From a virus (Duplodnaviria > Caudoviricetes), in the IMG/VR virus record IMGVR_UViG_3300024980_000003, positions 15 through 64,014 of that record: a stretch of DNA of 64,000 nt; one strand, 5' to 3'. This document shows positions 1-64,000 of this stretch, one piece after another. Made by a program: the position numbers and the translations under genes. A model generated the notes under the pieces. It did not search any database and was not told where the DNA came from. It saw nothing but the letters and a program-made list of their open reading frames with translations. Within the stretch, counting starts at the first letter, position 1; each line of letters starts with the position of its first letter.

Positions 1-17
1 ACAACGCATTGATTTAA

Positions 18-66
18 TGGAGCCAATGGCGGGAGTCGAACCCGCGACCTACTGATTACGAATCAG
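18..66 (-). repeat. att core at the prophage/host junction: 3' half of tRNA-Thr(CGT), anticodon arm to CCA
   Basis: Minus strand CTGATTCGTAATCAGTAGGTCGCGGGTTCGACTCCCGCCATTGGCTCCA; no D-arm or 5' acceptor strand upstream. Confidence 0.9.
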
Positions 67-198
67 GACGGTTATTATTCTGGCCTGTTCTTGCTAGGAT
101 TTTAATGTGTCATCAAGTGCCTGTTTTACAGGGCTTGCAGCTTTTCGTCATTCCTTTCTGTTCCTTTTTGTGACGGTAATAATCTATTATATGTCACT

Positions 199-228
199 CC
201 CAAAGGCACTACGAAAGGCACTACGAAA
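199..228 (+). promoter_or_regulatory. Integrase arm-type binding sites (AAAGGCACTAC direct repeats)
   Basis: CCCAAAGGCACTACGAAAGGCACTACGAAA; the same tandem motif lies on the other att arm at 63763-63789. Confidence 0.75.
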
Positions 229-229
229 A

Positions 230-1426
230 ATGGCATTCACCGACAAGCAGATTAAAGGACTTAAACCCAAGGCAGCGCCCTATCGCCTTTTTGAAAAAGG
301 CCCCGACAAGGGGTTCGGCATCCAGGTAACAGCAAATGGCTCGGTATCGTTTTTCATCCAGTATGCCACAAACGGGAAGAAGCGATTTTATAACTTAGGA
401 CGCTATCCCTCGGTGACGCTTTATGATGCAAGGATAAAATGCCGGGAAATCAGGGCGATGATTGATAACGGCAGCGATCCGCAAGAACAACACCCCACGC
501 ACCGTTTTGGCGTGGTGCGCGACTTGTTTGACTACTATGTAAAAAAGATGCGCGACGATGGCAAGACTACGTGGGTTGATGTGCAAAATGGCCTGAATGC
601 CAACTGCCAAGATATTATGGCTATGCAAGCTAACAAGGTTGATCCTATCCATATTAGGAAAATCCTGCATACGATCATCAACAGAGGATCAGAGGTTCAG
701 GCAAACCGTATCAGGGCTTATTTGAACCGGGCGTTTAAGCTGGGCGTTTACCATGACAATGACCCGGCAAACCTATCGAGTTCAGTGATATTCCAACTCG
801 CTATGAATCCGGTGGAAGCGATACCCAAGAACACGAAAGCCGAAGCCGCCGGTGAGCGCAACCTGTCATTTGGCGAGATCAAGACGCTGTGGCATAGCAA
901 CGACATTGGCGAGCAGATGAGCATAGCCGCAAAGCTATTGTTGATTTACGGGTGCCGGATGATGGAGCTGTGCGGGGCCAAGAAAAACGAGTTTGATTTT
1001 GACGCGATGATCTGGACGATACCTTGGGAGCGCGTTAAAACCAGCAAGAAAAATAAGCGCCCTCACCTGTTGCCGATCACGCCGCTGGCAAAAACGCTAC
1101 TGGATCGGCAATTGCTCTATGCCTGGGACTCTGAGTATCTATTCCCCGGTCGGCATGACAATAGCAAACATATTCATCAAACCTCATTGAATCATGCCAT
1201 GAGGCGTGTATCCGGGCTTGATTCTTTCGATGTGAGAGCGTTACGTCGAACATGGAAAACCAGAACGGGCGAAGCTGGCATAGGTATTGAAGTCAGGAAT
1301 CTAATTCAGAACCATAGCCGAACGGATGTTAGCTCGGTGCATTATGACAAATGGAGTTATATCGCAGAAAAAAGGGCGGCTCTTGAGCGATGGGAGGCGC
1401 ATCTTATTGGAATGCTGAAGGATTAA
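230..1426 (+). CDS. int: Phage tyrosine integrase (P4-like, N-terminal arm-binding domain)
   Basis: Likely start MAFTDKQIKGLKPK; LGRYPSVTL arm domain; catalytic motifs YGCR, RALRRT, QNH, HYDKWSY; adjacent to tRNA att. Confidence 0.95.
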   Translation: MAFTDKQIKGLKPKAAPYRLFEKGPDKGFGIQVTANGSVSFFIQYATNGKKRFYNLGRYPSVTLYDARIKCREIRAMIDNGSDPQEQHPTHRFGVVRDLFDYYVKKMRDDGKTTWVDVQNGLNANCQDIMAMQANKVDPIHIRKILHTIINRGSEVQANRIRAYLNRAFKLGVYHDNDPANLSSSVIFQLAMNPVEAIPKNTKAEAAGERNLSFGEIKTLWHSNDIGEQMSIAAKLLLIYGCRMMELCGAKKNEFDFDAMIWTIPWERVKTSKKNKRPHLLPITPLAKTLLDRQLLYAWDSEYLFPGRHDNSKHIHQTSLNHAMRRVSGLDSFDVRALRRTWKTRTGEAGIGIEVRNLIQNHSRTDVSSVHYDKWSYIAEKRAALERWEAHLIGMLKD

Positions 1427-1493
1427 CAACCACCATCCAGCCGGATGATTTTAAACAGACTCGCGGCTTGTCCGATTGAGCGCATAGTTATAC
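1421..1493 (-). repeat. Degenerate/hybrid attC-like site 1
   Basis: Minus strand GTATAAC-TATGC-GCTCAAT-CGGAC is a canonical attC first half; the partner arm matches poorly; GATTAAC contains the int stop codon. Confidence 0.55.
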
Positions 1494-1503
1494 AGGGGTA
1501 AGA

Positions 1504-1770
1504 ATGATAACTGGGGTAGCTATTAGAAATGAAAATATGGTGATAAGCCTACCAAGACCGAATAGGCATTCAGATTGCTTTGCATACGCGCAAAGGATGG
1601 GAATTAATCTAAGCGAAAGCGAACTTGGAAAGAAAGCGGATCATCAGGGTTTTGTCACGCATACGGGCAAATTCCTAAACCGAGTTGAAGCGGCAAAATA
1701 TCTAAAACGAACAAAGCAAAAAACATTATTCCCAATTGGTGGAATAGCAATTAGCGAGGATTTGTGGTGA
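1504..1770 (+). CDS. Cassette ORF, small phage-type hypothetical protein
   Basis: 88 aa, RHSDC and QGFVTHTGKFLNRVEA motifs; bounded by GTTATAC and GCATAAC. Confidence 0.8.
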   Translation: MITGVAIRNENMVISLPRPNRHSDCFAYAQRMGINLSESELGKKADHQGFVTHTGKFLNRVEAAKYLKRTKQKTLFPIGGIAISEDLW

Positions 1771-1771
1771 T

Positions 1772-1868
1772 GCATAACGCCGTGTTAAGCGGAAAGCCGC
1801 CACACGGTTAATTTTAACGGCGCAAATGCGCTACATGGCGGCTTTTCCGCTTGAACTAAGAGTTATAC
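1772..1868 (-). repeat. attC-like site 2 (97 bp, complete)
   Basis: + strand GCATAAC-GCCGT-GTTAAGCGGAAAGCCGCCA...TGGCGGCTTTTCCGCTTGAAC-TAAGA-GTTATAC; perfect stem except one extra G and one extra T. Confidence 0.9.
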
Positions 1869-1879
1869 ATGGTGAAAAA

Positions 1880-2092
1880 ATGAACGAATGGCCTGGTGGT
1901 AAAAGACATGCAATGGATCAGGGAGAACACGAACGCTGGAATGATACGCATTATCCGGGAACGAGGCAGCTTTGTTGCAAGTGCGACGAACCGACCGGAC
2001 GTTGCGAAGAAGATTCTATCTATTCAGAAGACGGTGAGGATGGGCCGTTTTGTGAAGAGTGTTGGCGAGAGCATCCAGAATATGGTGTATAA
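1880..2092 (+). CDS. Cassette ORF, Cys-rich Zn-finger hypothetical protein
   Basis: CCKC...C...CEEC; flanks GTTATAC/GTATAAC are exact complements; the stop codon lies inside GTATAAC. Confidence 0.75.
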   Translation: MNEWPGGKRHAMDQGEHERWNDTHYPGTRQLCCKCDEPTGRCEEDSIYSEDGEDGPFCEECWREHPEYGV

Positions 2093-2123
2093 CGCCGAAT
2101 TAACGTTCGTCGGTACGAACTTT
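2087..2123 (-). repeat. attC-like half-site 3 (truncated)
   Basis: GTATAAC-GCCGA-ATTAAC...GGTACGAACTTT resembles the left part of site 4; no partner arm. Confidence 0.6.
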
Positions 2124-2358
2124 GCGGTGCGGGTTGACAGTAAAAAACGGAGTAGGCCAAAAACAGAACGAGGCAAAGTGTGGGTAAAATCAGCATCACA
2201 TCCGTTTTACGTTGGCATAAACGAGCGTGGCATATTTGAGACAAAAGAGGAGGCTGAACGCGCTAAAACAGAAACGTGGGAAATGATCGTAAATGTATGA
2301 CATAACAAACACATCTACTCGCGGCGACGTGGCTGACGGGGTATAATGGAGGGGCAAG

Positions 2359-2544
2359 ATGAGCACCGAAGAAGTTTTTGAAGAACTAGGGATAAGCGAG
2401 AAGGAGGCTCTGGAATATCTGAATCAATACACATTCGGCAGCAATGAGCTGACTGGGGCGGTCAGTATTGTGCGGTTCGCCGCGTGGTTTGCGTTTGAAT
2501 TGTGCAAAAATAACGAAACCAAAAAGGGTGTGCATAACGCCTAG
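2359..2544 (+). CDS. Cassette ORF, hypothetical protein
   Basis: 61 aa, GGAGG RBS, ends inside attC-like site 4. Confidence 0.7.
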   Translation: MSTEEVFEELGISEKEALEYLNQYTFGSNELTGAVSIVRFAAWFAFELCKNNETKKGVHNA

Positions 2545-2617
2545 TTAAGGCGTAGCGGCACGAACTTTAAACAACACCGCGATGCTGAACGGTGTCGCCT
2601 TGAATGACAGGCTATAT
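2532..2617 (-). repeat. attC-like site 4 (86 bp, one core mutated)
   Basis: GCATAAC-GCCTA-GTTAAGGCG...CGCCTTGAAT-GACAG-GCTATAT; the expected GTTATAT would complement ATATAAC at 2853. Confidence 0.8.
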
Positions 2618-2858
2618 GACACTAAAAATACTTGATATAAATGAACATGATTTGCATCTGGTCGGGCTAGAGTTAAACGCATGTCCATTTTGCGGAAGCA
2701 AAGCGTTTGCGACAGGCAGGTTTATCGAAACATCAGAGATATACCAGTATCGAGTCGCATGTATGAATCACCATTGCGGGGCAAGTGTCGCATATAATTC
2801 TCGTGATCGAAAAGATGCAGCAGATAACGCCATTAGAAATTGGCAAAAACGAATATAA
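2616..2858 (+). CDS. Cassette ORF, Lar-like restriction alleviation family protein
   Basis: LNACPFCGS...C...CGAS...AIRNWQKR pattern of the Lar_restr_allev family; stop in ATATAAC. Confidence 0.75.
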   Translation: MTLKILDINEHDLHLVGLELNACPFCGSKAFATGRFIETSEIYQYRVACMNHHCGASVAYNSRDRKDAADNAIRNWQKRI

Positions 2859-2908
2859 CGCCTGAATTCACCGGTCGCGCGGCGGTACGGTGGAATGAAA
2901 ATTTAAAA
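2853..2908 (-). repeat. Short degenerate attC-like site 5
   Basis: ATATAAC-GCCTGA-ATTCACCG...CGGTGGAAT (extra G)-GAAAA-TTTAAAA; right core decayed. Confidence 0.65.
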
Positions 2909-2923
2909 CTTTTGGAGAAAATA

Positions 2924-3259
2924 ATGGACTTTCAACGCTTGAGAAACCTGTCCAATGGACGATTGCACACCGAGATTGGCCACATCTACGAAGACCTGGA
3001 GACTATTACTGGCGAGCGCGGATTGATGACTCACATGCTTCCGAGAGCGGTAAGAGCGGTTAAGCCGTGGCTTCGCGAGCATGTAGCAGACCCACGTTTT
3101 TGGGATGGGGAATACGACACCGCGCACACCGGGGAGTACACATTGCCAGAGCCTACAGCAGAAGACAGGTTGGCGATGTTTGAGCGATATAAGGCGCAAC
3201 CGAACCCGCTGGAAGGTAAGGACGTGATTGCGGTGCAGGTGATGCACCTAACGCAATAA
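2924..3259 (+). CDS. Cassette ORF, hypothetical protein
   Basis: GGAG RBS, MDFQRLRNL start, ends inside site 6. Confidence 0.75.
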   Translation: MDFQRLRNLSNGRLHTEIGHIYEDLETITGERGLMTHMLPRAVRAVKPWLREHVADPRFWDGEYDTAHTGEYTLPEPTAEDRLAMFERYKAQPNPLEGKDVIAVQVMHLTQ

Positions 3260-3333
3260 TAACGGGACGCGGCGACGCGAATGAAATTTAACGAAAGATT
3301 AGGGCCGCGTTCCCGTTGATTTACGGGTTAGGC
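3246..3333 (-). repeat. attC-like site 6 (88 bp, complete)
   Basis: ACCTAAC-GCAAT-AATAACGGGACGCGGC...GCCGCGTTCCCGTTGATT-TACGG-GTTAGGC; extra T and G on the + strand. Confidence 0.9.
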
Positions 3334-3354
3334 TTAATACGGGAGAATAACATA

Positions 3355-3768
3355 ATGAGTTTTACAGATAACACAACAGGCAAATTTGAGTGGGGGACGC
3401 CACAAAGATTTTTTGATGAATTACACCGAGAATTTGGGTTTACGGTTGACGTTTGCGCTAATAAGGAGCTTGCAAAATGCCAAAAATACTACGACAAAGA
3501 AATGGACGGGCTGAAACAAGATTGGACGGGGGAGATTTGCTGGATGAACCCGCCCTATGGAGCCGCCATAGGTATGTGGCTCAAGAAAGCGGCCGAGAGC
3601 CGTGCGACTGTGGTTTGCCTTGTGCCATCGAGGACAGACAACAAGTGGTGGCACCAATGGGTAATGACGGCATCAGAGATCCGTTTCGTGAAAGGACGGC
3701 TACGGTTTCAGGGTGCAGGGGATGGAGCAAAATTTCCTTCAGCGATAGTAATTTTTAGAGGGGCATAA
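3355..3768 (+). CDS. Cassette ORF, phage DNA N6-adenine methyltransferase (Dam family)
   Basis: WGTPQ..FD.L..EFGFTVDVCA, WMNPPY, LVPSRTD..WW, EIRFVKGRLRF, FPSAIVIF; stop in GCATAAC. Confidence 0.9.
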   Translation: MSFTDNTTGKFEWGTPQRFFDELHREFGFTVDVCANKELAKCQKYYDKEMDGLKQDWTGEICWMNPPYGAAIGMWLKKAAESRATVVCLVPSRTDNKWWHQWVMTASEIRFVKGRLRFQGAGDGAKFPSAIVIFRGA

Positions 3769-3826
3769 CGCTGGCGTAACCGGCGCGTAGCGAAGCGGAG
3801 CGTCCGCGTTGACGCAAATGTTAGGC
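3763..3826 (-). repeat. attC-like site 7 (64 bp, complete)
   Basis: GCATAAC-GCTGG-CGTAACCGGCGC..GCGAAGC..GCGTCCGCGTTGACG-CAAAT-GTTAGGC; three unpaired bases, GAA loop. Confidence 0.9.
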
Positions 3827-3844
3827 CACGATTTTGGATGGAAA

Positions 3845-4051
3845 ATGAACGACTTTAATGACAACTACCCGAAGCAAAGAACAGGCAAAGAGTGCAAGAA
3901 AACGGATTGCGACAGGCATAAGGATTACGTTGCATGGCAATGCGGAACCGCTAGCCTTAATTTTTGCGTGGAATGCAAACATGCTCACGTTTCGCAGTAC
4001 AAGCGCAAGGGGCCTAACGCAATAATAACGGGACGCGGCGAAGCGTTATAA
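3845..4051 (+). CDS. Cassette ORF, Cys/His-rich hypothetical protein
   Basis: Flanks GTTAGGC (3820) and GCCTAAC (4012) are exact complements; the ORF reads into the next half-site. Confidence 0.65.
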   Translation: MNDFNDNYPKQRTGKECKKTDCDRHKDYVAWQCGTASLNFCVECKHAHVSQYKRKGPNAIITGRGEAL

Positions 4052-4052
4052 C
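4012..4052 (-). repeat. attC-like half-site 8 (copy of the left arm of site 6)
   Basis: CCTAACGCAATAATAACGGGACGCGGCGA is identical to 3247-3275, then breaks at GTTATAAC. Confidence 0.75.
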
Positions 4053-4121
4053 CACCACTTACGCGCAGTTCTCAGCAAATGCGCGTGTTTTCACGACATG
4101 ATTAATACAGGATGAAGTAGA

Positions 4122-4271
4122 ATGAACGAAGCAGAAAAGCTACGTGCGGCAATAAATACTATTGAATCGAGAGTAGTTGAGTTTTTGCTTGCCAGAATAT
4201 TTGGGAGAAAATTCTATTGCAACGATAGAACTTATGCTGAGTACAAAGGTAAAACATACCTGCTTAATTAA
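4122..4271 (+). CDS. Small hypothetical protein (49 aa, below the ORF-track cutoff)
   Basis: MNEAEKLRAAINT...KTYLLN; stop overlaps the 49-bp repeat. Confidence 0.55.
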   Translation: MNEAEKLRAAINTIESRVVEFLLARIFGRKFYCNDRTYAEYKGKTYLLN

Positions 4272-4313
4272 GCCAGTAATTCAGCCTCAATAGTCCGGCG
4301 CTTAGTCAAGCCA
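4265..4313 (+). repeat. 49-bp intergenic hairpin repeat, copy 1
   Basis: TAATTAAGCCAGTAATTCAGCCTCAA...GCGCTTAGTCAAGCCA; copy 2 lies 860 bp downstream. Confidence 0.85.
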
Positions 4314-4331
4314 CAACACACAAGGAACATA

Positions 4332-4598
4332 ATGAGTTTTTCAGAAGAAATAGTCTCAGCAGCAAGGCCAGCAAAAGGTTTTGATGTTGCGCCATACCGA
4401 GTAAAGAGTTTTCCCAAAGGCAACGGGTTAAGTTGTGTATGCAACGCTTACGGCTTTAATTGCACTACTTTTATTACGAAACCGGGGGCCGTCATGACGA
4501 CGCTTGATGATGCAACAGAGATTGCAAGACGATGGAACATGGGGAGCGGATTCCAAACCAGTATGCCGATTTTCACGACAATAGGAAAAACAGAATGA
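4332..4598 (+). CDS. Hypothetical protein
   Basis: AAGGA RBS; ATGA coupling to the next gene. Confidence 0.7.
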   Translation: MSFSEEIVSAARPAKGFDVAPYRVKSFPKGNGLSCVCNAYGFNCTTFITKPGAVMTTLDDATEIARRWNMGSGFQTSMPIFTTIGKTE

Positions 4599-4837
4599 CC
4601 TTACGCGATGAAATAATGAATTTGCCTTGTGATGATGATTGCTCGTTAATTTATATGATGGGTCATCATGAAGCCAGACATGCTGCCGCCGAGTTAGCAA
4701 TAAAGTACGACGCGGCGATGGCAGAAATTGAGCGCATTGCTGACAGGCTGGGGTCAGACAGAAACTATGAGCGCTGCATTGCCGTGGAAGATTTGCTTCA
4801 GGTGTTAGCTAATTTCGATCTTGGCGATGCAGGATAA
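4595..4837 (+). CDS. Hypothetical phage protein
   Basis: MTLRDEIMNL...GHHEARHAAAELA; translationally coupled. Confidence 0.7.
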   Translation: MTLRDEIMNLPCDDDCSLIYMMGHHEARHAAAELAIKYDAAMAEIERIADRLGSDRNYERCIAVEDLLQVLANFDLGDAG

Positions 4838-4840
4838 GAA

Positions 4841-5131
4841 ATGAAACCAGAAGATATTAAATACCCTAGAGATATATTTGCCGATTTAATTATAGGCAAT
4901 AGCCCGTATGCTTTTTATTTCTTTCAGTGGGTTCCATATCAAACCGATGCTAAACGATGGCGCTTAAAGCTATTTCATGACGTAAAGACATTTGATGGTA
5001 GAGAGGCATTTGGTATTTGGCCTAATGGAGGAAGTTGCGGCCCGTTTAAAGATGAGGAAGTGGAGTTTATACGGTTGAGCAAAGAGCAGTTTGGAAGCAC
5101 CTATCAAGACCCAAGAGATAAGGCTAATTAA
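4841..5131 (+). CDS. Hypothetical protein
   Basis: 96 aa; stop overlaps repeat copy 2. Confidence 0.7.
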   Translation: MKPEDIKYPRDIFADLIIGNSPYAFYFFQWVPYQTDAKRWRLKLFHDVKTFDGREAFGIWPNGGSCGPFKDEEVEFIRLSKEQFGSTYQDPRDKAN

Positions 5132-5173
5132 GCCAGTAACTCAGCCTCAACATTCCTGCGCTGAGTCAAGCCA
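5125..5173 (+). repeat. 49-bp intergenic hairpin repeat, copy 2
   Basis: TAATTAAGCCAGTAACTCAGCCTCAA...GCGCTGAGTCAAGCCA with ACTCAGC/GCTGAGT stem. Confidence 0.85.
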
Positions 5174-5193
5174 GCCAGCACAATATATAAAAG

Positions 5194-5227
5194 CAAAAGC
5201 CCATATCAAGTAAAGACTATGGGCTTA
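5194..5227. terminator. Hairpin between convergent early and lysis transcripts
   Basis: AAGCCCATA...TATGGGCTT with an upstream A-run (U-tract on the minus strand). Confidence 0.55.
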
Positions 5228-5319
5228 AAATTGACACTATGACTGATTGCAATCTCAGTATCATAGCGGCCTCATAAGAGGACTTAAAGCCTGATGCTTA
5301 TGCAGAGCAGGAAGGACAA

Positions 5320-5781
5320 TTAATCATACTGATCTAATCCGTATTGCCGTATTAAGTTTTTCAGTAAAGCAGCATAAGCCGGGTCGGTTGCATAGCCAGC
5401 CTTGGCGATTGCCTCAGCAAATTCACACCCATTTTCACACAGGAATGCTGGCTTATAGCGTTTGTTATTACGCAAGAACAATGCGTGATCGGCAATGCTA
5501 TCGGCCAGTGTTGCGTATTTACGAAAAGGAGCATTAACTTTGGTCTTAACGCCCTTGAAGTATTCCGTTGTCGGCATGAGTACCGAGTCGCCTTTCCATC
5601 TGGAATCAGCCTTAACGCCAAACAGGTTGCAAGCGTTCTTGGTAAGGGCCGATCTACCCCATCCAGATTCAAGTATTGCCTGAGCTATGGTTACGCTGGC
5701 CGGAACCGAATGCGCTTTGTGAGAGGCTTGAGCACCTGGTATCAGTGAGTTTAAAAATGCTGTGTTGCTTGGATTAACCAT
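5320..5781 (-). CDS. Endolysin, GH73 glucosaminidase (FlgJ-like)
   Basis: AQAILESGWG, NLFGVKA, TTEY, FRKY, GYATDPAY motifs. Confidence 0.93.
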   Translation of the reverse strand: MVNPSNTAFLNSLIPGAQASHKAHSVPASVTIAQAILESGWGRSALTKNACNLFGVKADSRWKGDSVLMPTTEYFKGVKTKVNAPFRKYATLADSIADHALFLRNNKRYKPAFLCENGCEFAEAIAKAGYATDPAYAALLKNLIRQYGLDQYD

Positions 5782-7134: not shown

Positions 7135-7183
7135 GCGTATAACCTTGCGTATGATTAATATTGATGTATAATTATACGCATGA
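7131..7183. promoter_or_regulatory. Divergent promoter/operator between RHH gene and tnpB
   Basis: 12-bp inverted repeat TCATGCGTATAA/TTATACGCATGA covers both start codons; TTGCGT-16-TATAAT ends 7 nt before the tnpB ATG. Confidence 0.7.
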
Positions 7184-8313
7184 TGATACAAAAATCCTAT
7201 AAATTCAAGTTCTACCCAAATGCTGCGCAAGCCGAACAGCTGCAAAAAGAATTCGGCTGTGCGCGGTGGACATGGAATCGTGGATTGATTGAACGGGATT
7301 ATGCGTATTCTCAATGGGGCGTTAGCCTGGGTTCTTTGCATGACATTGGAAAGAATATAAATCAGTACAAGAAGAATGATTATCCTTGGCTAAGTGATGC
7401 AACATCGAGCGTTATTCAGCAAAAGCTAATCGACCAAGATAAAGCGTTTAATAATTTCTTTAAAGGTCGGGCAGGTTTTCCAAAGTTCAAAAAGAAAAGC
7501 CATGCTCAAAGCATCCGCTATACGCTTGACCAGCGACAGGTTTTAAACAATTACCGGTCTGGTGAATTGTTAAAGCTGCCAAAATTGGGCGAATTAAAGA
7601 TTAAATGGTCACAAGTCCCAGGCGGCATACCCAAGATGGTCACGGTATCGAAGTCGGCAAGCGGATGTTATTTCGTCAGCTTCATGTGTGAGGTCGAGCA
7701 AGACTTAAAACCGATGACCGGCAAGGTGATCGGTATTGATGTTGGTATCAAGGATGTGGTCGTAACCAGTGACGGCTTTTATTCAGGCGCGCCCAGGTTT
7801 ACCTATAAGTACGCACGGCAATTGAAGAAAGCGCAACGGGTTTTAAGCCGTAAGAAAAAAGGCAGTAATGGATTTAAGAAGCAACGGATTGTGGTAGCAA
7901 AGATTCACGAAAAGATTGCAAACAGTAGAAAAGATTTTTTGCACAAAGTGACAACCAAGCTTGTGTCTGAAAATGATATTTTGTTTTTGGAAGATTTAAA
8001 CGTTTCCGGGATGCTCAAGAATCGTAAGCTATCAAAAGCGGTTGCGGATGTGGGCATTTTTGAACTCAATAGGCAAATCGAGTACAAATCTCAGTGGTAC
8101 GGCAAGCAGGTTGTTAAAATCAGCCGTTGGGAGCCTACGACGAAGAAGTGTAGTTCATGCGGGAATATTCGCATTATGAAATTATCGCAACGTACTTATG
8201 AGTGCGAATGTGGTTTAGTAATGTGCCGCGATCTTAACGCAGCGCATAATATTAAGGCGGCGGGGAACGTCGTTATGAGTGGAGCCGTACACCAAATTGA
8301 TAAAGCCGCATGA
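7180..8313 (+). CDS. tnpB: TnpB RNA-guided endonuclease (IS200/IS605 OrfB), no tnpA
   Basis: YKFKFYPN, FGCARWTWN, GIDVG, LEDL, CSSC/CECG, RDLNAA: intact RuvC D-E-D. Confidence 0.95.
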   Translation: MMIQKSYKFKFYPNAAQAEQLQKEFGCARWTWNRGLIERDYAYSQWGVSLGSLHDIGKNINQYKKNDYPWLSDATSSVIQQKLIDQDKAFNNFFKGRAGFPKFKKKSHAQSIRYTLDQRQVLNNYRSGELLKLPKLGELKIKWSQVPGGIPKMVTVSKSASGCYFVSFMCEVEQDLKPMTGKVIGIDVGIKDVVVTSDGFYSGAPRFTYKYARQLKKAQRVLSRKKKGSNGFKKQRIVVAKIHEKIANSRKDFLHKVTTKLVSENDILFLEDLNVSGMLKNRKLSKAVADVGIFELNRQIEYKSQWYGKQVVKISRWEPTTKKCSSCGNIRIMKLSQRTYECECGLVMCRDLNAAHNIKAAGNVVMSGAVHQIDKAA

Positions 8314-10920: not shown

Positions 10921-12180
10921 ATGACAAAAACGATACGAAAAGCCTTTAAATTTAGGTTAAAAATTACACCTGAAACCGATGAAAAATTAAATAATTTCGT
11001 TGGTGGATGTCGCTTTGTCTGGAACAAGTCGTTGGCTCTGAATCTGGATAGATTAAACAACAAAGAGCCTATTTTGTGGTATCAGGAGCTTAATTTTTGG
11101 GCAACAATTTGGAAGCAGTCTAATGAATACGGTTTTCTAAGCACTGTTCCTTCTCAGGCACTACAGCAAAAACTAAAAGACCTGGATAAAGCGTTCAGTG
11201 ATTGCTTTGATAAGAATCAGCCATTAAAGCGTTGCCCTGTATTCAAGAAAAAAGGACTATCCGATAGCATACGATTCCCTCAAGGCTTTAAGATCGATCA
11301 AGAAAATAGTCAGATTTTCCTGCCCAAAATAGGCTTTGTGAAATATCGCAATAGCCGCAAGGTAATTGTAGAGCCTAAGAATATCACTGTAAGCCGCAAA
11401 GGTAAGCACTGGTACGCTTCTATTCAGGTTGAGTACGACAAAATAGATATGCCTCATAAATCAACGTCAATCGTTGGTATTGATATGGGCGTTAAGCAGT
11501 TCTCTACTCTATCTGACGGCACTATATACCAGCCATTAAATAGTTTTAAAGGTAAAGCTGAAAAGTTAGCCAAGCTTCAACGAAAGCTAAAAAACAAAAA
11601 GAAATTCTCAAGTAATTGGAAAAAAGTAAAAACAAAAATAACAAAGTGCCATGAAGAAATAGCCAACGCTCGAAAAGATTACCTTCACAAAGTATCAACT
11701 GAAATCTGCGAAAACCAAGCCGTGATAGTCGTTGAAGATTTGAAGGTAAAGAATATGAGCAAGTCGGCAAAAGGCAACCATGAAAAGCATGGAAAAAACG
11801 TTGCTCAAAAATCAGGATTGAACAAGTCAATTCTCGATCAAGGGTGGGGCATGTTTTTTCAAATGCTGGACTATAAGCAAGCCTGGAATGGTGGCATGGT
11901 TCTCAAAGTGCCTGCGCACCATACAAGTCAAACTTGCCCATGTTGCCAGCATGTAGCCAAAGAAAACAGACTCACACAAGCTGACTTTGTTTGTGTCGAT
12001 TGCGGCTACAGCAATAACGCCGATATAGTTGGAGCATTGAATGTATTAAGCCGGGGACACCGGCAGTTAGCCTGCCTAGCGAGTGGTGAAGTAATACCAC
12101 CGGCAACAGGAACCAGTGGTAAGCGGCGACGCAAGATCACTTCTGAGAAATCAGGAATCACCATTCCTTTAGGGCGGTGA
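10921..12180 (+). CDS. tnpB: TnpB of an IS605/IS1341-type element, no tnpA
   Basis: AFKFRL, GIDMG, VVEDL, KSGLNKSILDQGWG, TSQTCPCC, CVDC, NADIVGA: intact RuvC. Confidence 0.95.
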   Translation: MTKTIRKAFKFRLKITPETDEKLNNFVGGCRFVWNKSLALNLDRLNNKEPILWYQELNFWATIWKQSNEYGFLSTVPSQALQQKLKDLDKAFSDCFDKNQPLKRCPVFKKKGLSDSIRFPQGFKIDQENSQIFLPKIGFVKYRNSRKVIVEPKNITVSRKGKHWYASIQVEYDKIDMPHKSTSIVGIDMGVKQFSTLSDGTIYQPLNSFKGKAEKLAKLQRKLKNKKKFSSNWKKVKTKITKCHEEIANARKDYLHKVSTEICENQAVIVVEDLKVKNMSKSAKGNHEKHGKNVAQKSGLNKSILDQGWGMFFQMLDYKQAWNGGMVLKVPAHHTSQTCPCCQHVAKENRLTQADFVCVDCGYSNNADIVGALNVLSRGHRQLACLASGEVIPPATGTSGKRRRKITSEKSGITIPLGR

Positions 12181-12230: not shown

Positions 12231-12401
12231 ATGACCAATAAAACAGATGGCAACTATTTCCTTACCATGCTAATGGTTTGCGTAGCTCCACCTGTTCTGT
12301 TCCTGCAATGGCTATTCCTTGGTGATAAGTTCGGTCATGGAAAAGCCATTGTCTTTGTGGTGACTATGTTCCTGTTCGGGTCGGCCTTCTTCTTTAATTA
12401 A
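12231..12401 (+). CDS. Small two-TM membrane protein (56 aa, not in the ORF track)
   Basis: AAGGA RBS; two hydrophobic helices; convergent with the giant gene. Confidence 0.65.
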   Translation: MTNKTDGNYFLTMLMVCVAPPVLFLQWLFLGDKFGHGKAIVFVVTMFLFGSAFFFN

Positions 12402-15400
12402 TTGAAGTAAGGGTGCGACCTTTCCACCGCCATGCGTGACACTTCGTTAGATCGTTGCATCAGTGCGTTAATCCTATCGCGCTTATCAGTAGCACTTAGA
12501 TTGCTGCGGTAAATTACATCCACCTGCGCCCTGAGTCTGCTCAACTGCTTGCCGGAAGCTTCCAGTTGACGGCGCTTGCTCAACTTGTCGGCATTATCGG
12601 TCATTAGCTCGTTGGCCTTGTCGATATTGCCTTCTTTCTTGTACGCGTTAATCGTCTTATGGATTTGATTGACTTCGTTCAGCATATCGTAAAACTCAGT
12701 ACCGTATTTGGTGTGCAGCGTGGGACGCTCCTGATAGAACGCTTTCACGACCGGCAAACTGTCAATCCTCATCGCTGGCTGATCCGGCATCCCCGATAAC
12801 TGCCTAACCATCATATCCGATGCGCCCAAGGCGTACATGCCTAATGCGCCAAGATAGCCATGCAGTAAATGCTCCAGACGTTTGGGCGATGCACCTAATG
12901 CTTCCGGCAAGGACGCGCTTAACGCTCGCATGGTTTCGCTAGTGTATTCGTTATAACGTGCGCTCGGCAATTTGCCTTCGTCGGCCATGCCTTCAATCGC
13001 CCTGCCGGTAAACATATCCTTGTTGGAGTACAGTTCGATGAACGGTTTGAATAGCTGCGGTACTGGATTGAAAGCCAAGGTATCGCTTGCGCCATGCCCC
13101 ATGCGTTCGGCGTAAGTTTTCAAACTGTCTTTGCCGATCAACGCTCTCGCTGAACGCTCAGGAACAGTGCCAAAGATCAAGCCTAACTCGAACGGTTTAG
13201 GTATCCTAAAGTGTTGATTTCCAAAGAAGAAATGCCAGTAGGTGTCTTGATCCCACGGTTCCAAAGCTTCGTAATCATCGTTATCCGAATTGAGTGCCAG
13301 CAATGCCAAAGAGAACATGGCAATCGATAAGCCTTTCGCCAGAATCATTTTCCGCGCTTCCTTGGTCTGACCTGCTTTCGCCAATCGATACAGGCCAACC
13401 AATCGGGCATTGAAGAACGGCAGCATGTCACTCATGGCCCGGATCAGCGTAAACGATCCCTGCATCGAAAAGTCCATCAGGTCTTTGGCTTCAAACAGGT
13501 ATTTGGCTTTTTCTGCCCCCGCGCGTTTAGCGTTTTCAAGAATCGCTTCACGGCTGGCGTTTTCAATCGCATCGCCCACGGACCGGTACATTTCCCAATA
13601 CTTCTTCGGGGTGTCGAGAATGGAATCTTTAAAGCCTTGAACGTCCTTAATGCCGCGCCTTCTCAGTGCCGCATCCATCGACTCCCTGGCCGCATCCGGG
13701 TTGCTGTAGTTGCCATAGCCGCCCTGGAATGACGCCCCGGCAAACATCATATCGACATAGCCACCTTCTTCGTTGAAAGACTTAATCGCCCCATGAATCG
13801 AGTCAACACCGAGCTTAAAGCCTTTTTCTTCGGCAATCGTCCAGGAGTGCATGGCGTCACGGATAAAGTTTCTGGCCATGAACGTCGGGTCGGCGGTCAC
13901 AGCACCGGTCAGCAAATGCTTCATGTAGCGCATTGGCTTGAAGATGCCGCCGAACGGGATTTGATTTACGGCCGTCAATGAAGTCAGCAGCATGGCATCG
14001 TTGACTTTGTAGTATTCCGACTTACCATCACGCATAACCCTAACCACATCGGGATCAGTCGGCGCTTGCATGGCCCACATCTTGGCAATACCACTCGTCA
14101 AATCAGACGGCATGGCCTCGACGATTTCTTTCGGCAAGCCCGATTCCAGCATCAGTTTTTTAACCTGCTCCTTGGGGATCAGTGCCGCCTTTAATTCAAC
14201 TCTCTGGATAGCCTCGACAAAGCGCGAGCCTTCCAGATTATTCAGCGTTTTGTTCAAGGCGTCGTTCTTCATCGACGCATCGATCAAATGCGCCCAATTC
14301 TGCATCATGTTGCCGAGTGGGTCGCTCATCGGGTTATCGCCGCCTTTCAGCATTTTGATACCGGAGGTTTGGTGGGTCAGTCCACCCTTACCGCTTGGGC
14401 CTGATTTCTTGCCTTCGATCAGCCGGTAAAACGGGATATAGTCGGCGCTCTCGAACAGCTTACGCGCTTCCGCATCCACCAGTCCGGCCTCTTGCGCCAA
14501 GTCCAGCACCGAGCTATTCATGGCGGCGATGTCATCAGCCACACCTTGATAGTCGTCTTGTTCCAATTTCAGCAAGGCATCGATTTCGTCACGACTGAAA
14601 TTGTTCTCTTTGCCTTCCTTAAACAATCGGTCTGCTCTGCGCCCGACCATCCAGGCAGTGAAGTTTTCCAAGTCATCCTTGACCGGCTGCAATAGCTCGG
14701 CAAACGACTTGCTGCCGTCTTTTTTCTGGATAATGCCGCCCTCCCATTTCGGCGCACCATGCAACAGCAACGCTTGCATCGTTGAGCTTGAGCCGGTTGA
14801 TAGTCTTGCACTGATATAGCCTGATACCGAATGCGCCACATCGCCGAGGATTTCTTTCTCTGCGCGCTTAATGCCGATGAACTTATCGAATATGCCCTGC
14901 TCCAGTTGCGGCTTCATTTCATCCCATTTCTGCCGGATGGCTTGAACATTAGCTTTCAGCCCGAGACTGATAATGTCGGTGATGGCTTGAGATAGCGTTT
15001 TCTTCGGGCCGAGTCCGGCCTTGCGTTTAGCTTCTTTGATAACATCGCTATCGACAGCCCTACTATACTTCACTCCGGTTTTATCGCCGCCCTTGGCTTC
15101 ATAGTCATAGGCATCACCATACCAGCGTTCGGTTTTGGGACGGTTTTTATTCTTGGCGTCTTTGCTCAGTCCTACTTTGTCGCCGCCGTAGTTCTCGTAA
15201 TCGTAAGCGTTGCCTTGCCATTTGTCGGCGTTTCTCGGTGCAGGAATATGATTCATTTCCTTGCCATTGAATAGCACAATCACATCACTGTCTTGAATGT
15301 CTGCGGTGGCGCTTGGTGGCGTGGATTTGCGTTGCTCGGCGGTTAGTTCTTGTCGGGCTTGTGTGTTTCTTGACTCAACCTCTCCAGCTAGTCTTTTGTA

Positions 15401-18400
15401 TTGCTCATGTGCCGTTAATGTGTTTTCTCTGGATAAGATGTTGCGCCGATCTTGCTCAAGATCAATATATTCTTGGTTCTCTGGGAATTCACTTAACTTA
15501 TCTAGCAATTCAAAATAACTTTCGGTCTGATCATTTGGCACATCATCCCAATTTAACGCTCTGCCTCTAGGCGTGTCTTTGCCATAGGTATCCTTTATTT
15601 TGATAAAGTCACGATTCTTCTTCCTGACCAGATTACCAAACTCAGGATTAGCGTCCATTAAGCCGAGTATCTTTTTATCGAGCGGCCTTCTTAGCTCATC
15701 GGTAATGTCTTTGTCTCTGAACTGGCTAGGACTTCCGCCAGTTGCAAAGCCTTCAATGCGCTGAATGCCATGCTGTATTTCATGGAGCAATACGGACATC
15801 ATATTTTCTTTGCCGAAACTGCCCTCGTTCAAATGAATCAGCTTATCAGTGGCGCTGTAATTTCCTTCGGCCCCCAAGTCTTTAGTAATCAATACCCCGA
15901 TTTTGCCGAGTTCTGGATACGCTTCAAACAGTTTCGGATGGTCGATAAAATCACTCAGCCTGTGCAAGCGTTTGCCATTCAGCGCCCAATCATGAAAGCT
16001 GTCGCCCCATGACGCATCGCTATCATCGATTTCAAAGCGCCACTTGCCGTCTACGCCTTTAAACCAGCCTGTTTCCTGCCGTACCGTTTCAGGATTATCT
16101 CCTGCTTCGATGCGTTGCTGTGCGCTGGATAGCTGGTAGGTGTCGGCAGTCTTGGCGTTTTGTCCGGCAAAGCTTTTGAGTATGCCGTTGCCCGTACCAG
16201 TGCCATTAACCTTTGCTCCGTATTTCGATAGCGCCGTTAAATCAGCTGGCGTGAGTGACTTGATAAATCCAAGGTCAAGGCCATTCCTCACCAAAAACGC
16301 CCGAATCGTTGCCACTAAATCGGCAAAGGTCTTTTTCAACAGGCCGGTGAAGGAGTCGGGATTCTGCGACCAGAGGGATACCATGTAAGCGCGGAATTCC
16401 GAAGCTTGATCTTTGACCGGCGTTTCTGCGGCCATTACGCGCTTGTAGGCTGCGAGTTCTATCGCGCTGCCAATACCTTTAGCGGCTCGGTCAAAACTGC
16501 GCTGTAGCTGTGCTTCAAAGCGGTCTATGGCGGCTTTGACTAGCGGGTCTTTGGATTCTGAGCGGTGAAGAAGCTCGTGACTAAGAACGGACGACAGGTT
16601 GTTCTTGTTGAGCATATCCGAAACCAAATAAAGCTGATCTCGTTTCTCATCGTATAGGGCCTCTACGCCAGACATGTTGCTAGACTTCTTGATTTCTCCT
16701 GAATTAAAGTCTATATTTATTGCTGACGCTAATGGTGTGGCTTTAGACTTCGTGTCGAGCAAGGCATTATGACCTGCGGCTATGCCATTAGTCGTCTTTC
16801 TATTTGAATAAAAAGTGATAATAGACTCTTTATTTCCTTTTGCCGATACAACAACTTTAAATCTAACCCCACCTGAATTAAGCGTATAAATATGCTTTTG
16901 TCCTGCAATATCAAGTTTGCCATCACGAACTACTTTGCCTAGATCAAGAATCTCATTTGCTGTTATATAGCCTTTTTTACCGCTAAAATGATCGAGTAAG
17001 ATATGCGTCTTACCAAATCTCTCATGCCCTTGTGATAAATTAACAAATTCCTTTACATGCTCAAGGTCGCTTTTTCTGATCTCTGAGCGAATTTTTGTAT
17101 CAGTGATAACATCATAAATACCTTTCTGTTCTTTAGATAGACTTGATGTTGAGCCTATTTCTTTTATAAACCCATCAATTAAAGAAGCTATTTTGGCTTG
17201 CGTATATTTTGTTGGCTTAATCCTTGACTCTAACGCAATTCCACGCTCTTGCAGATGCTTGGGCAAATCCTCAACCGTTTGCACGATATTCAAAATCCCC
17301 GCATCCACCAGCTTATTCACGCGCTTAGGCAATAGCTTCTTGATGTCGGCTACGGTGCTGCCGGTGGTGGGTTGGGATTTGCTGGCTTTAATGTCCTGTT
17401 TCCAATCAATGCCCTTTCTTTCAAGAAGTCGCCTTGCTGCCTGAGTTGCATCATTATCAGGATGTCCATTGGCCGTGGCAATCGTAGCTTCTCTGGTGGT
17501 TGGCGGCCTTATCTTTCCGTTTGCCACCTTATCTGCATATTCTTTTCGCAGTTCACCCCTACGTATTATTAGTTCGTGATCTTTCTTGGCTTGAGCTTGA
17601 ACCTGTCTTCTGTGCGTATTAGGACTTTTACGGTTAGAACTCATGTGTAACGCGGCGTCGCCAATATCCTGTCTGGATGCACCATTTGACGCTAGATATT
17701 CTTCCTCTGTCATTACAGGAATATCACCCTGCTTCTCACCAGTCACCTTGGCTAGGCTTGGTTGGGATGGTTCGGAAGTAACCGCCGATGGTGCGCTTCG
17801 TTCGAGTGGCGTCAGCGGTGTTGTTTGTTCGCTTATCCTTTCTTCCCCTTCGCCCGATACATCGGATTCAGCATCGCCGCCTGTTGCTGGCGTTTCATCT
17901 CGGCCTGTATTTGCTCGTCGGTTTGGTAGTACTGTGCTGGCTTTTGGGGATTGGGTTTGGTCATTTGCTTGTTGCCTTGGTCTTGCATATATTACTGATT
18001 GATCGTCTTTCGATGTGGCAATAACATCATTTCCACTTACCTTTAACGCTCTCGTTAAAGAAGCGAATCCAGCCGATGACAAGCCGCTAGGGAATGTTAG
18101 CTTTACAGTGCCTTCTTTATCCGGCGTGGAAATAGCGTGGATTCCGTATTCATCAAGAATCGCCTTGCCAACTTCGTGCGCTTCGACCGATTTATCTCTA
18201 ACAATTAGCCTGTTTGAGCTATAATTATCAGCAACACGGCCCTCATCGGTATTGCTTATTTTTGCAATATTGCTTGAGGGTTCTTTTTTTGTGAGCACAT
18301 CAGAATCTTGTACAGAATCCGCTTGATTAAAGTCAACGCCCCTTACCCTGTCAGCGCCAAATCTGCCTCTTGCCCATCCAGTTATATCTTTAATGGTATC

Positions 18401-59368: not shown

Positions 59369-60205
59369 ATGACCAACATAGCGACAATCAAAAAAGAATC
59401 GCAAGTACCGGCGCTGGCTATCAGCGAGACTGAATTAATGGATGTATTGCGTAATTCTCTTTATCCAGGCGCACAAGATAACAGCATCAAGATGGTTATT
59501 GGTTACTGCAAAGCGTCTGGCCTTGATCCTATGCGTAAGCCGGTTCATATCGTGCCGATGTGGGATAGCAAATCAGGCTCCATGCGTGATGTGATTATGC
59601 CGGGGATCGGTAGTTATCGATCCGATGCCGCTAAATCAGGGCAATACGCTGGCGTTTCCGTTGCTGAGTTCGGGCCTGATATTACTGAAAACATTGGAGG
59701 CGTTGAAATCACTTACCCGCAATGGTGCCGAGTCATTGTCAAGCGTCAGATAGCTCATGGGCAAATAGCTGAGTTTGCGGCTACGGAACGCTGGAAAGAA
59801 AACTATGCGGTGCGCGGAGGAAAGGATAAATCAATTGCGCCTAATGCCATGTGGTCTAAGCGTCCTTATGCCCAGCTTGAAAAATGCGCCGAAGCGCAAG
59901 CACTCAGAAAAGCGTTTCCAGAAGTCGGTTCGCAACCCACTGCCGATGAAATGGAAGGAAAAGCATTTGACGATGGCGCAACCGTGATTGACGGCGCAAC
60001 CGGAGAAATTATCAACAAGCAGACAGTAAGACCGGCACTGGAATATTGCACCGCTGAAAAGTTTCAAGAGAACCAGGCCAAGTGGCGCAACCTGATCGAA
60101 TCCGGTAAAGAGACTGCGGATAACTTAATCATTAAACTCAAATCTAAAACCCTGTTCACCGATGAGCAGATGACGGAAATCAAATCTTGGGAAGCAGGAG
60201 AATAA
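59369..60205 (+). CDS. bet: Phage recombination protein Bet (RecT family)
   Basis: YCKASGLDP..KPVHIVP, GIGSYR, MWSKRPYAQLEKCAEAQALRKAFP, TADEM. Confidence 0.93.
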   Translation: MTNIATIKKESQVPALAISETELMDVLRNSLYPGAQDNSIKMVIGYCKASGLDPMRKPVHIVPMWDSKSGSMRDVIMPGIGSYRSDAAKSGQYAGVSVAEFGPDITENIGGVEITYPQWCRVIVKRQIAHGQIAEFAATERWKENYAVRGGKDKSIAPNAMWSKRPYAQLEKCAEAQALRKAFPEVGSQPTADEMEGKAFDDGATVIDGATGEIINKQTVRPALEYCTAEKFQENQAKWRNLIESGKETADNLIIKLKSKTLFTDEQMTEIKSWEAGE

Positions 60206-60207
60206 CC

Positions 60208-61899
60208 ATGCAAATACATGACTTAGAGCAAGGTTCGCACGAGTGGATTCAGTTCAGACGAAACCATGACGGCGCAAGCGAAATAGCCGCAGTAATTGGC
60301 ATTTCCAAAAACACCACTCGCAATGAACTGTTGCGACTCAAAAGCACTGGAATGGAAAAGGAATTTTCTGATTACGTGCAAAAATACGTGTTAGATAAAG
60401 GCCACGAAGTCGAAGCATTAGCAAGACCTATTGTCGAGTCAATGATTGGCGAAGAACTTTACCCTATAGTTGCATCTAAAGGTGGTCGTTTATCAGCTTC
60501 ATGCGACGGACTAACGCTGATGGGAGAGTTTGGCTGGGAAAACAAGCAGTATAACCAAGAATATTTTGATCTGGTTTCATCGGGTATTGTGCCAGAAGAA
60601 CACATACCACAAGTACAGCAATGCTTAATGGTAACAGGCGCAGAAAAGTGGTTTTTTACCGTATCTGACGGCACCCAAGAAAGAACCGCTGGCGTATGGG
60701 TTTATCCTGACCAAGATTGGTTTAATCGCATCGAATCAGCATGGAATCAGTTTCATAAAGACCTTGCTGATTATGTTCCGGTAGCCGTCATCGAGCCACC
60801 CAAAGCCGAAGCCATTAAAGACTTGCCAGCGGTAACAGTGCAAGTGCGCGGCGAACTAACACTGTGCAACATCCAAGATGTAACACCATTGTTTGATAAG
60901 TTTCTGGCCGAAGCTAAAACCAATTTGGTGACTGATGAAGATTTTGCCCAAGCCGAAGCCGAAGCAAAACTTGGCCGGGAAACCGCGAAACGCTGCAAGC
61001 TGACCGCCAAAGCCGTAGTCGATCAGATGCTATCCATCAGCGAAGTAACACGCACATTGGAAGAATATGCGGCCAAGTTTGACGCGCTGGCATTGAGGCA
61101 AGAAAAGGCGGTTAAGGAACAAAAAGAAACGCGCAAAGCGACGGCAAAGCTTGAGCGTGACAAAGCGTATGCCGAGCATATAGCGGTATTGAATGAAGAA
61201 ATTAAGCCTATCTATTTGGCATTAAGCACGACCGACAAGCCTGACTTTGTTGGCGTTATGAAAGGACAGCGTACTTTAGCCAGTATTTATAACAAGCTTG
61301 ATACCGAACTAGCTCGTGCCAAGATTGCGGCTGATGCCGTGGCTAAGTCAGTCAGATTGAATCTAAACCTAATTAATGGGCAGCCAATCTACAAGTTCTT
61401 ATTCAACGATATTCAGAATATTATTTATAAGGATTTTGATGATCTGAAATTGTTAGTTGATTCGCGCATTGAAGCGCATCAAAAAGCCGAAGCCGAAAAG
61501 CTGGAACAAGAGCGAGAACGCATTCGCCAAGAAGAACAAGCCAAGGCGAAACGCGAAGCTGAAGCCAAGTTACGCGCGGAACAGGCCGAAAAAGAGCGTA
61601 TTGAGCGCGAGGCTAAGCAAGCTTCGGCACTGGCTGAGCGTGAAAGGCTTGAGCGTGAAAATCAGGAAATGCTTGAGCTGGCGAAAAATAAAGCCGGCAC
61701 CGAAGAACCTACTGCTATTGCGCCAGCGAAACAAGCAGAAGTCGAGCATGTTGTTGAGCAGCTTATTGATAACGCAAAGCAAGTGCGCCCAACGGCAGAT
61801 GAATTACTTAAACTCATATCGTCTCATTATTCAGTGTCTATTGGTACCGCTATTGATTGGATTGTTGAGGCGGCTGAGTCAATTCAGGAGTCGGCTTAA
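60208..61899 (+). CDS. YqaJ-like exonuclease with long coiled-coil tail
   Basis: QGSHEW..FR, GASE, GHEVEALAR, SASCDGL, WENK, QVQQCLMV. Confidence 0.9.
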   Translation: MQIHDLEQGSHEWIQFRRNHDGASEIAAVIGISKNTTRNELLRLKSTGMEKEFSDYVQKYVLDKGHEVEALARPIVESMIGEELYPIVASKGGRLSASCDGLTLMGEFGWENKQYNQEYFDLVSSGIVPEEHIPQVQQCLMVTGAEKWFFTVSDGTQERTAGVWVYPDQDWFNRIESAWNQFHKDLADYVPVAVIEPPKAEAIKDLPAVTVQVRGELTLCNIQDVTPLFDKFLAEAKTNLVTDEDFAQAEAEAKLGRETAKRCKLTAKAVVDQMLSISEVTRTLEEYAAKFDALALRQEKAVKEQKETRKATAKLERDKAYAEHIAVLNEEIKPIYLALSTTDKPDFVGVMKGQRTLASIYNKLDTELARAKIAADAVAKSVRLNLNLINGQPIYKFLFNDIQNIIYKDFDDLKLLVDSRIEAHQKAEAEKLEQERERIRQEEQAKAKREAEAKLRAEQAEKERIEREAKQASALAERERLERENQEMLELAKNKAGTEEPTAIAPAKQAEVEHVVEQLIDNAKQVRPTADELLKLISSHYSVSIGTAIDWIVEAAESIQESA

Positions 61900-63804: not shown

Positions 63805-63837
63805 AAAAAAAATCCTTGAGATTGAGTTCAAGGCTTT
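63805..63837 (-). terminator. Phage-supplied terminator downstream of the tRNA 3' fragment
   Basis: Minus strand CCTTGA-loop-TCAAGG followed by ATTTTTTT. Confidence 0.6.
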
Positions 63838-63845
63838 GATTTAAT

Positions 63846-64000
63846 TGGAGCCAATGACGGGAGTCGAACCCGTGACCTACTGATTACGAATCAGGACGGT
63901 TATTATTCTGGCCTGTTCTTGCTAGGATTTTAATGTGTCATCAAGTGCCTGTTTTACAGGGCTTGCAGCTTTTCGTCATTCCTTTCTGTTCCTTTTTGTG
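63846..64000 (-). repeat. attP-type junction: tRNA-Thr 3' half plus repeat of window positions 18-172
   Basis: Same sequence as 18-172 except two T-stem substitutions; phage sequence on both sides. Confidence 0.9.

Follow-up and report, generated by a model that had tools for sequence, protein, structure and literature searches.

An attC cassette array of reversed polarity behind the integrase gene of a phage genome

The DNA analyzed here is a stretch of 64,000 nucleotides (nt), called the window, which comprises all but 14 bases of the 64,014-base virus record IMGVR_UViG_3300024980_000003 (Duplodnaviria; Caudoviricetes), rated complete by CheckV. Between positions 1421 and 4052, directly behind a phage integrase gene, eight short intergenic elements alternate with small open reading frames (ORFs) of the plus strand. 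The structure of these elements, their matches to a covariance model trained on sites linked to intI (model R1) and a sequence kinship of 77-94% with integron and array sites support their assignment as integron-type attC sites; this architecture had been proposed in an earlier note on the same DNA and was upheld. The genes of the array lie on the attC bottom strand, a polarity reversed with respect to bacterial integrons, and no integron integrase (IntI) was detected in the record. Judged from the sequence, it is probable that an IntI encoded by the host works the phage sites in trans.

In each unit of the array, a folded attC site is followed by a ribosome-binding site and then by a small gene. 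The sites and cassette genes are given below with their R1 scores, where present; L002 stands for a viral relative which is compared with the window further on.

1421-1493, minus strand: site 1, hybrid; right half like that of site 2, left half unpaired with the right half
1504-1770, plus strand: cassette ORF1, 88 amino acids; no Pfam match, weak match to phrog_839; missing from L002
1772-1868, minus strand: site 2, complete attC; 26.7 bits, E 2.6e-4
1880-2092, plus strand: cassette ORF2, 70 amino acids, Cys-rich; ends at the TAA of the following core; no family match; missing from L002
2087-2125, minus strand: site 3, half site; crossover-side core and a single L arm
2127-2300, plus strand: ORF3, start uncertain; 93% identical protein in L002; no family match
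2359-2544, plus strand: ORF4, 61 amino acids; reads through the core of site 4; 97% in L002
2532-2617, minus strand: site 4, attC, one core decayed (plus-strand GCTATAT); 21.6 bits, E 5e-3
2616-2858, plus strand: Lar-family restriction-alleviation protein; Pfam PF14354, 1.7e-9; phrog_599; its stop is the TAA of the next core
2853-2908, minus strand: site 5, decayed attC without far core; 12.4 bits, E 0.89, with filters off only
2924-3259, plus strand: DUF7736 protein, 111 amino acids; Pfam PF24875, 1.1e-16
3246-3333, minus strand: site 6, complete attC; 31.2 bits, E 1.8e-5
3355-3768, plus strand: Dam-type DNA N6-adenine methyltransferase; Pfam PF05869, 1.1e-28; phrog_111, 3e-52
3763-3826, minus strand: site 7, attC; 26.5 bits, E 2.8e-4
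3845-4051, plus strand: ORF8, 68 amino acids, Cys-rich; reads through site 8 to the TAA of the array end; no family match
4012-4052, minus strand: site 8, half site; copy of the left half of site 6 (repeat D5, 33 nt, 97%)

The lengths of the sites (56-97 nt) fall inside the range known for attC sites, and their central loops differ from one site to another. Both outer cores (AAC...GTT) are present in sites 2, 6 and 7, with complementarity at six of seven positions, and one core is decayed in sites 4 and 5. In five of the nine ORFs, the integrase being counted, the TAA of a core is the stop codon: that of the integrase sits in the first core of the array (GATTAA|C), that of Dam is the TAA of the site 7 core, and the right boundary of the array also reads TAA|C, at 4051|4052. 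A loop motif, AAnTTTAAC on the gene strand, is common to sites 1, 2, 4 and 6 of the window and to sites of L002 and of the loci L043 and L044; the stems differ. Reading by eye revealed no promoter in the attC loops, and a promoter consensus scan of the array gave none in these loops and only one weak match, at 2604-2632.

The window was scanned with a strict pattern made of 7-nt cores, ending in AAC and starting with GTT and complementary at six or more of seven positions, spacers of 4-6 nt and an 8-bp L stem with one bulge. Only 1772-1868 and 3246-3333 were found, and the mean in 30 shuffles, scanned on both strands, was 0.13 matches. When folded as single-stranded DNA, these two sites displayed the full attC shape, with z values of -3.7/-4.0 for 1772-1868 and of -2.2/-2.8 for 3246-3333.

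The model R1 was derived from bacterial integrons. A total of 151 genomes, two unpublished ones included, were searched for IntI, and 53 were over the cut-off; the array side was taken for 12 intI genes, 11 of which were scanned with the pattern scanner, and the 12 shortest intI-linked attC sites were aligned, the structure being supplied by us. On the integron loci, R1 gave 29 matches at E<=0.01. On both strands of the window, where the earlier note had called for such a search, four matches were obtained with E values from 1.8e-5 to 5e-3, all on the minus strand and within 2.1 kb, site 5 coming fifth. In the run with the filters off, only two further matches were found in 64 kb beyond the five array sites, both with E>4. 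For specificity, R1 was run on 80 unrelated viral loci (635,446 bases), drawn from a loose 14-base motif scan whose matches are mostly due to chance; it gave two matches, both in one locus.

Five of the eight elements originally described coincide exactly in their coordinates with R1 matches. No R1 match was obtained at 1421-1493, at about 2087-2125 or at 4012-4052; these elements, sites 1, 3 and 8, are copies of halves of full sites (repeat families D1-D6), which agrees with their earlier description as half or hybrid sites. The repeat of site 1 (D2) covers 42 nt with 76% identity to 1838-1879, that of site 3 (D3) covers 39 nt with 74% identity to the left half of site 4, and 3247-3279 is 97% identical to 4013-4045, inside site 8.

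In the window sites, a bulged base is located at top-strand position 16, as in intI-linked sites, and a second bulge follows 7-9 nt further, with a spacing that is identical in the same site type inside the integron L047. Conservation of the structure was followed on a set of 25 sites carried by mobile elements, the alignment being fitted to the model. In this set, 93.7% of the cells pair, the L helix is 97.3% paired, both sides have changed in nine of 16 pairs, and the covariation is 0.388 versus 0.147 in shuffles, none of 500 shuffles being as high. As a minimum-energy structure, the attC fold is restricted in the window to the two sites found by the strict scan. The complementarity of the cores that flank an ORF was also recovered: the five pairs contain three mismatches, the minimum possible, a value equalled by eight of 120 permutations, so that the support is modest.

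A search of the whole 64-kb record with TIGR02249 revealed no integron integrase. The integrase encoded at 230-1426 gave no TIGR02249 match, compared with a score of 384 bits, at a cut-off of 265, for the enzyme of L047. Since IntI is absent from the record and the adjacent integrase is not of the IntI family, "phage CALIN" (cluster of attC sites lacking integron integrases), as the array had been called from the outset, is the right name for it. Furthermore, 236 viral and phage loci (2.1 Mb, consisting of parts of contigs) yielded no IntI homologue at E<=1e-20, nor was IntI found in any of five tested records among further viral contigs.

The strand of the sites was read from their bulges. 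When the intI-linked arrays are viewed with intI pointing left, the L-box bulge of the top strand is found in the 5' half of the site in 25 of 29 scanner matches, and by the ORF-length method 23 of 26 model-supported sites have their ORF on the attC top strand. On the plus strand of the window, the bulged G and T are found in the 3' half of the site, which identifies the plus strand as the attC bottom strand. The five R1 matches all fall on the minus strand (3246-3333 scores 31.2 versus 15.1 bits on the two strands), and the plus strand carries the genes for Lar, the DUF7736 protein and Dam and the remaining ORFs. The arrangement of a canonical cassette, with the gene on the attC top strand and the attC site downstream of it, is not found in the window array. 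The gene strand is the attC bottom strand, and the polarity is reversed as compared with bacterial integrons.

The bottom strand of an attC site is the one that folds and is cleaved. Thus, the plus strand is predicted to be the active, recombining strand, and the crossover is expected at the left core (xxxTAA|C on the plus strand), not at the G|TT of the right core where the earlier note had put it; on this point the earlier note has to be corrected. A unit then begins with the C of a core, comprises the attC body and the gene, and ends with the next xxxTAA. As the gene strand is the bottom strand, the predicted AA|C crossover falls directly behind a stop codon.

This polarity is shared by other viral arrays. 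All cassette genes run antisense to the attC top strand in the window, in seven other mobile-element arrays and in the phage MW202573, and so do those of most other viral arrays sampled. With a looser 14-base motif, at least 79 further viral loci were collected, the motif matches being mostly due to chance; R1 found 76 matches in them, among the matches listed. Several of these loci are flanked by phage genes, such as those for a P22-like portal, terminase and coat in L193 and for primases in L211 and L245. By the ORF-length method, the 15 viral loci with two or more matches, among the matches listed, gave 23 cassettes opposite to the attC top strand, 8 on the same strand and 16 ambiguous. Three "same" calls among 18 viral sites (L043, L044) were rejected as overlapping antisense ORFs, the family-supported or longer genes being on the other strand. 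When judged by the GC content at codon positions, 11 viral loci yielded 28 calls of opposite, 3 of same and 12 of unclear strand; on the intI-linked control this method was uninformative (of 14 calls, 3 opposite, 1 same and 10 unclear), and the polarity is not based on it. Fisher and binomial figures on such cassette counts are indicative only, the sites within one array not being independent.

The recurrence of the opposite polarity in unrelated phages points to a rule of cassette entry into phage genomes. The crossover-side core contains TAA in 74 of 83 virus-borne sites, and in 40 of these 74 the TAA ends an open frame of at least 40 codons on the bottom strand, which is above one in three, for sites that are not independent of each other. 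Arrays start at stop codons: at that of the integrase in the window, of the upstream gene in the second array of L002, and of an ORF of 94 amino acids in L043. At either end of the window array (1426|1427 and 4051|4052), the plus-strand TAA|C corresponds to G|TT on the attC top strand. From these features, we infer that stop codons may account for the reversed polarity. The IntI target G|TTA reads TAAC on the complementary strand, and the insertion points tolerated in a packed phage genome would therefore lie right behind TAA stops. With insertion at these points, the attC top strand would run antisense to the operon, so that expression would be limited to genes on the bottom strand.

Site types of the window also occur elsewhere. 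The motif of site 2 was found in six further viral contigs with unrelated backbones and a G+C content of 35-51%, all of which contain a small array with R1 matches on the strand opposite to the genes, and at 18 loci of metagenome contigs, with many R1 matches. Two of the latter are complete chromosomal integrons (L047 and L050/L060), with a divergent intI gene, an attI-like junction and then from 6 to 20 or more sites. In L047, a contig of 163 kb, a full IntI is encoded at 4765-5706, 45% identical to IntI of the reference integrons, and the attI-like junction that follows it leads into an array of canonical strand; L050, which overlaps L060, terminates in the N-terminus of an IntI. Site 2 is 80% identical to sites in L047 and L050, and site 6 has a 77% identical site in the integron array L060 and a 94% identical one in L053. 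A homologue of Dam (52%) is present in the arrays of L044 and L052. Cassettes on the same strand as the attC top strand and on the opposite one number 12 and 5 in L060, 8 and 1 in L045, 4 and 0 in L048, and 2 and 3 in L047. An atlas search with the IntI of L047 gave Pseudomonadota as the commonest phylum, which is a lead and not a placement.

L053 (positions 3-3100 of a 74.5-kb contig) contains another integrase gene, followed directly by an array of reverse polarity whose first gene is of the Lar family. This array carries the 94% copy of site 6, and host-like genes on the other strand come after it. Units of the reverse, phage-type design were also observed inside integrons that possess IntI, at 1148-1606 in L050, where they are the third and fourth cassettes from attI, and at 236-668 in L047. 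The position of the L050 units near attI could mean that phage-type units were captured recently.

The content of the array varies among relatives. A search with the integrase yielded one viral relative, L002, a record with direct terminal repeats whose integrase is 94% identical. Homology with L002 ends at 1493, the last base of the right core of site 1, and resumes at 2089, inside the next left core; between these positions the window carries ORF1, site 2 and ORF2, and L002 a single unrelated ORF. The block 2089-3319 follows with an identity of 97.7%. Inside the loop of site 6, L002 then leaves the homology, continues with a hybrid site and two other ORFs, and rejoins the window at 4048, in the TAA|C of the array end. 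Three of the four junctions are thereby at cores (1493, 2089 and 4048), one is in the site 6 loop and none is inside a gene.

Further variants were looked for in contigs of four runs (X2-X5) from four studies of freshwater, freshwater sediment and groundwater metagenomes, in which uncovered parts are no evidence of absence. A contig of 7,581 bases from run X4 has an L002-like left end, and in it 3246 is joined directly to 4013, so that precisely 3247-4012 is missing, with the site 6 body, Dam, site 7 and ORF8. In L002 and in the run contigs, the differences in content all map to attC sites, never to the interior of a gene. The earlier expectation that related phages would differ at the sites was confirmed by L002 and by the X4 contig.

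L002 has a second small array, at 14410-15060, with copies of the right half of site 6 and of site 2 around other ORFs. It follows a Gln-rich, secreted-looking ORF, starts at the TAA|C of this ORF and ends in a minimal site with two cores 4 nt apart. In the window, the place of this second array is occupied by a TnpB gene, at 10921-12180. Another TnpB gene is found at 7180-8313; both encode OrfB_IS605, Cas12f1-like TNB and HTH domains, have no TnpA nearby and lie in segments missing from L002.

The carrier of the array, which stands directly behind the integrase gene, is best explained as a P22-like temperate phage integrated in a tRNA gene. The two features of the left end are as follows.

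1-172: attL; direct repeat of 63829-64000 (blastn, 97% over 172 nt)
230-1426, plus strand: phage tyrosine integrase; Pfam Arm-DNA-bind_3 and Phage_integrase

The 172-nt terminal repeats are taken as the putative attL and attR of an integrated prophage. By our own reading, a minus-strand tRNA gene would have its 3' part in the repeat; no whole tRNA was called by ARAGORN. The remainder of the window encodes a P22-like portal, a large terminase, a capsid protein and a lysis enzyme, as well as a YqaJ-like recombination exonuclease at 60187-61899. When positions 1-5200 were compared with 50,697 phage records, the only match, of 66% identity, was to a methyltransferase gene, and no close cultured relative was found. 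In reference genomes, the integrase has one distant relative (36%), on a contig of Grimontia marina, in whose genome no IntI above the cut-off was found. Just to the right of the array, a three-gene block is bracketed by two copies of an element of approximately 49 nt (4265-4313 and 5125-5173), each of which overlaps the upstream stop codon and is without attC cores; L002 holds a single copy that matches both. A single ORF of 2,919 amino acids occupies 12398-21157 on the minus strand.

A host IntI acting in trans would insert, excise and exchange units made of a gene and an attC site, and the phage could in this way shuffle accessory genes, among them the anti-restriction genes for Lar and Dam. 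We hold this to be the probable mechanism because the substrate architecture is that of integrons, because the same site types stand beside IntI, and because recombination of phage attC sites with IntI1 has been shown (Qi et al. 2023). Both the role of IntI in this movement and its activity at present are steps that we infer. Several points weigh against them. The 3246->4013 joint lies inside a direct repeat of 26-33 nt and thus does not distinguish between IntI and homologous recombination; both this joint and the L002 junction in the attC loop could equally be due to IntI, to homologous recombination or to slippage. As sites 1, 3 and 8 of the eight are halves, several units could not be excised now. 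The same attC type has unrelated genes on both sides in different phages, so that no linkage between gene and attC is demonstrable, and no cassette protein is common to a phage array and a confirmed chromosomal integron. The attC fold is the minimum-energy structure in only two of the eight sites and not in sites 4, 5 and 7, R1 is a self-built model and not that of IntegronFinder, and the whole case rests on sequence data.

The joint in the repeat, the hybrid site of L002 with its crossover in the loop, the half and hybrid sites at 1421, 2087 and 4012 and the different genes on both sides of one site type would all be expected if the sites were descendants of attC sites that are now mere repeats, with cassettes turned over by homologous recombination or slippage, for instance through phage recombination genes such as that of the YqaJ-like exonuclease, and without IntI. 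We consider this, the main alternative, rather unlikely. The pairing geometry, the position of the bulge and the AAC/GTT cores have been kept through compensatory changes across site types and unrelated phages, which argues for selection on the fold and not just for repeats. In addition, three of the four L002 junctions and the array ends are at cores, the cores flanking a gene match better than those within a site, the odd pair GCTATAT/ATATAAC brackets Lar, and GTTAGAC/GTCTAAC is a matched core pair in L043. Movement of the units by the phage tyrosine integrase (230-1426), or by another phage recombinase that recognizes the hairpins, is suggested by the start of the array in the integrase stop codon and by the unrelated element L053, where an integrase gene likewise directly precedes such an array. 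It is nevertheless very improbable: the arrays of L038, L043 and L193 and the second one of L002 are not beside an integrase, the enzyme encoded at 230-1426 is an arm-binding phage integrase without IntI family match, and the same site types are present in classical integrons with IntI. The idea to which we give least credence is that the hairpins serve merely to terminate transcription or as regulatory stem-loops between genes. The elements are indeed intergenic and structured, but terminator calling called none of them, no T tract lies behind them, and their conserved cores, spacers and bulge fit attC sites and not terminators.

Bacterial integrons are stores of anti-phage defence cassettes. 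With a host IntI as the working enzyme, the array suggests the mirror case, in which phages use the integron enzyme of their host to swap counter-defence genes (Lar, Dam and other methyltransferases), and the presence of reverse units close to attI in a chromosomal integron suggests that cassettes pass between the arrays of phages and those of bacteria. As a tentative extension, phages may keep a cassette pool of their own, of reverse design and often made of counter-defence units, which would move between unrelated phages and into chromosomal integrons, where the units would be silent. If this is true, the units of the phage pool would mirror the defence cassettes of bacterial integrons.

Among known systems, a complete integron has intI, attI and a cassette promoter beside its array, and the phage array is without intI, attI and Pc promoter. 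Sedentary chromosomal integrons have the same attC architecture, single-gene units and in part the same site types (77-80% in L047, L050 and L060); most of their genes are on the top strand, whereas those of the window are on the bottom strand. According to the text of Loot et al. (bioRxiv 10.1101/2022.09.11.507474), IntI inserts cassettes at non-att sites (attG, 5'-GWT-3') in E. coli chromosomes. Such insertion offers a route to seed an array that lacks attI, with ends at G|TT as observed here, and might extend to phages.

The closest comparison is with the CALINs that the text of Qi et al. (2023, Front Microbiol, PMC9892861) describes in phage genomes, integrase-less attC arrays with small ORFs and DNA methyltransferases as cargo, as in the window; a bacterial IntI acting in trans is proposed there, and five of six phage attC sites recombine with IntI1. 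The array is thus less novel than the earlier note assumed, since phage CALINs with methyltransferase cargo and sites proven with IntI1 were already published. As compared with those in that text, the window array belongs to another phage, stands behind a prophage integrase, carries Lar as well as Dam, has cassette-level variants in relatives and shares site types with chromosomal integrons that bear IntI. One of their examples, MW202573 (L297), has by R1 the same reversed design as the window: at 2069-3738, four matches with E<0.01, all on the minus strand, surround a SAM-dependent methyltransferase, and the annotated coding sequences in 1-4707 are all on the plus strand. Another, TJE1, is canonical by R1, its two matches (E 4e-4 and E 0.04) lying on the gene strand, and P12002L gave no R1 match at E<=1. 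In the text of PMC9892861, the words "opposite" and "antisense" do not occur, and "oriented" is used only for cassettes pointing one way; full-text literature searches, with the supplements of Qi et al. outside their scope, found no discussion of a reversed gene-attC polarity in phage arrays. Phage CALINs are already known, and the reversed polarity is an aspect of the window array that goes beyond the text of Qi et al.

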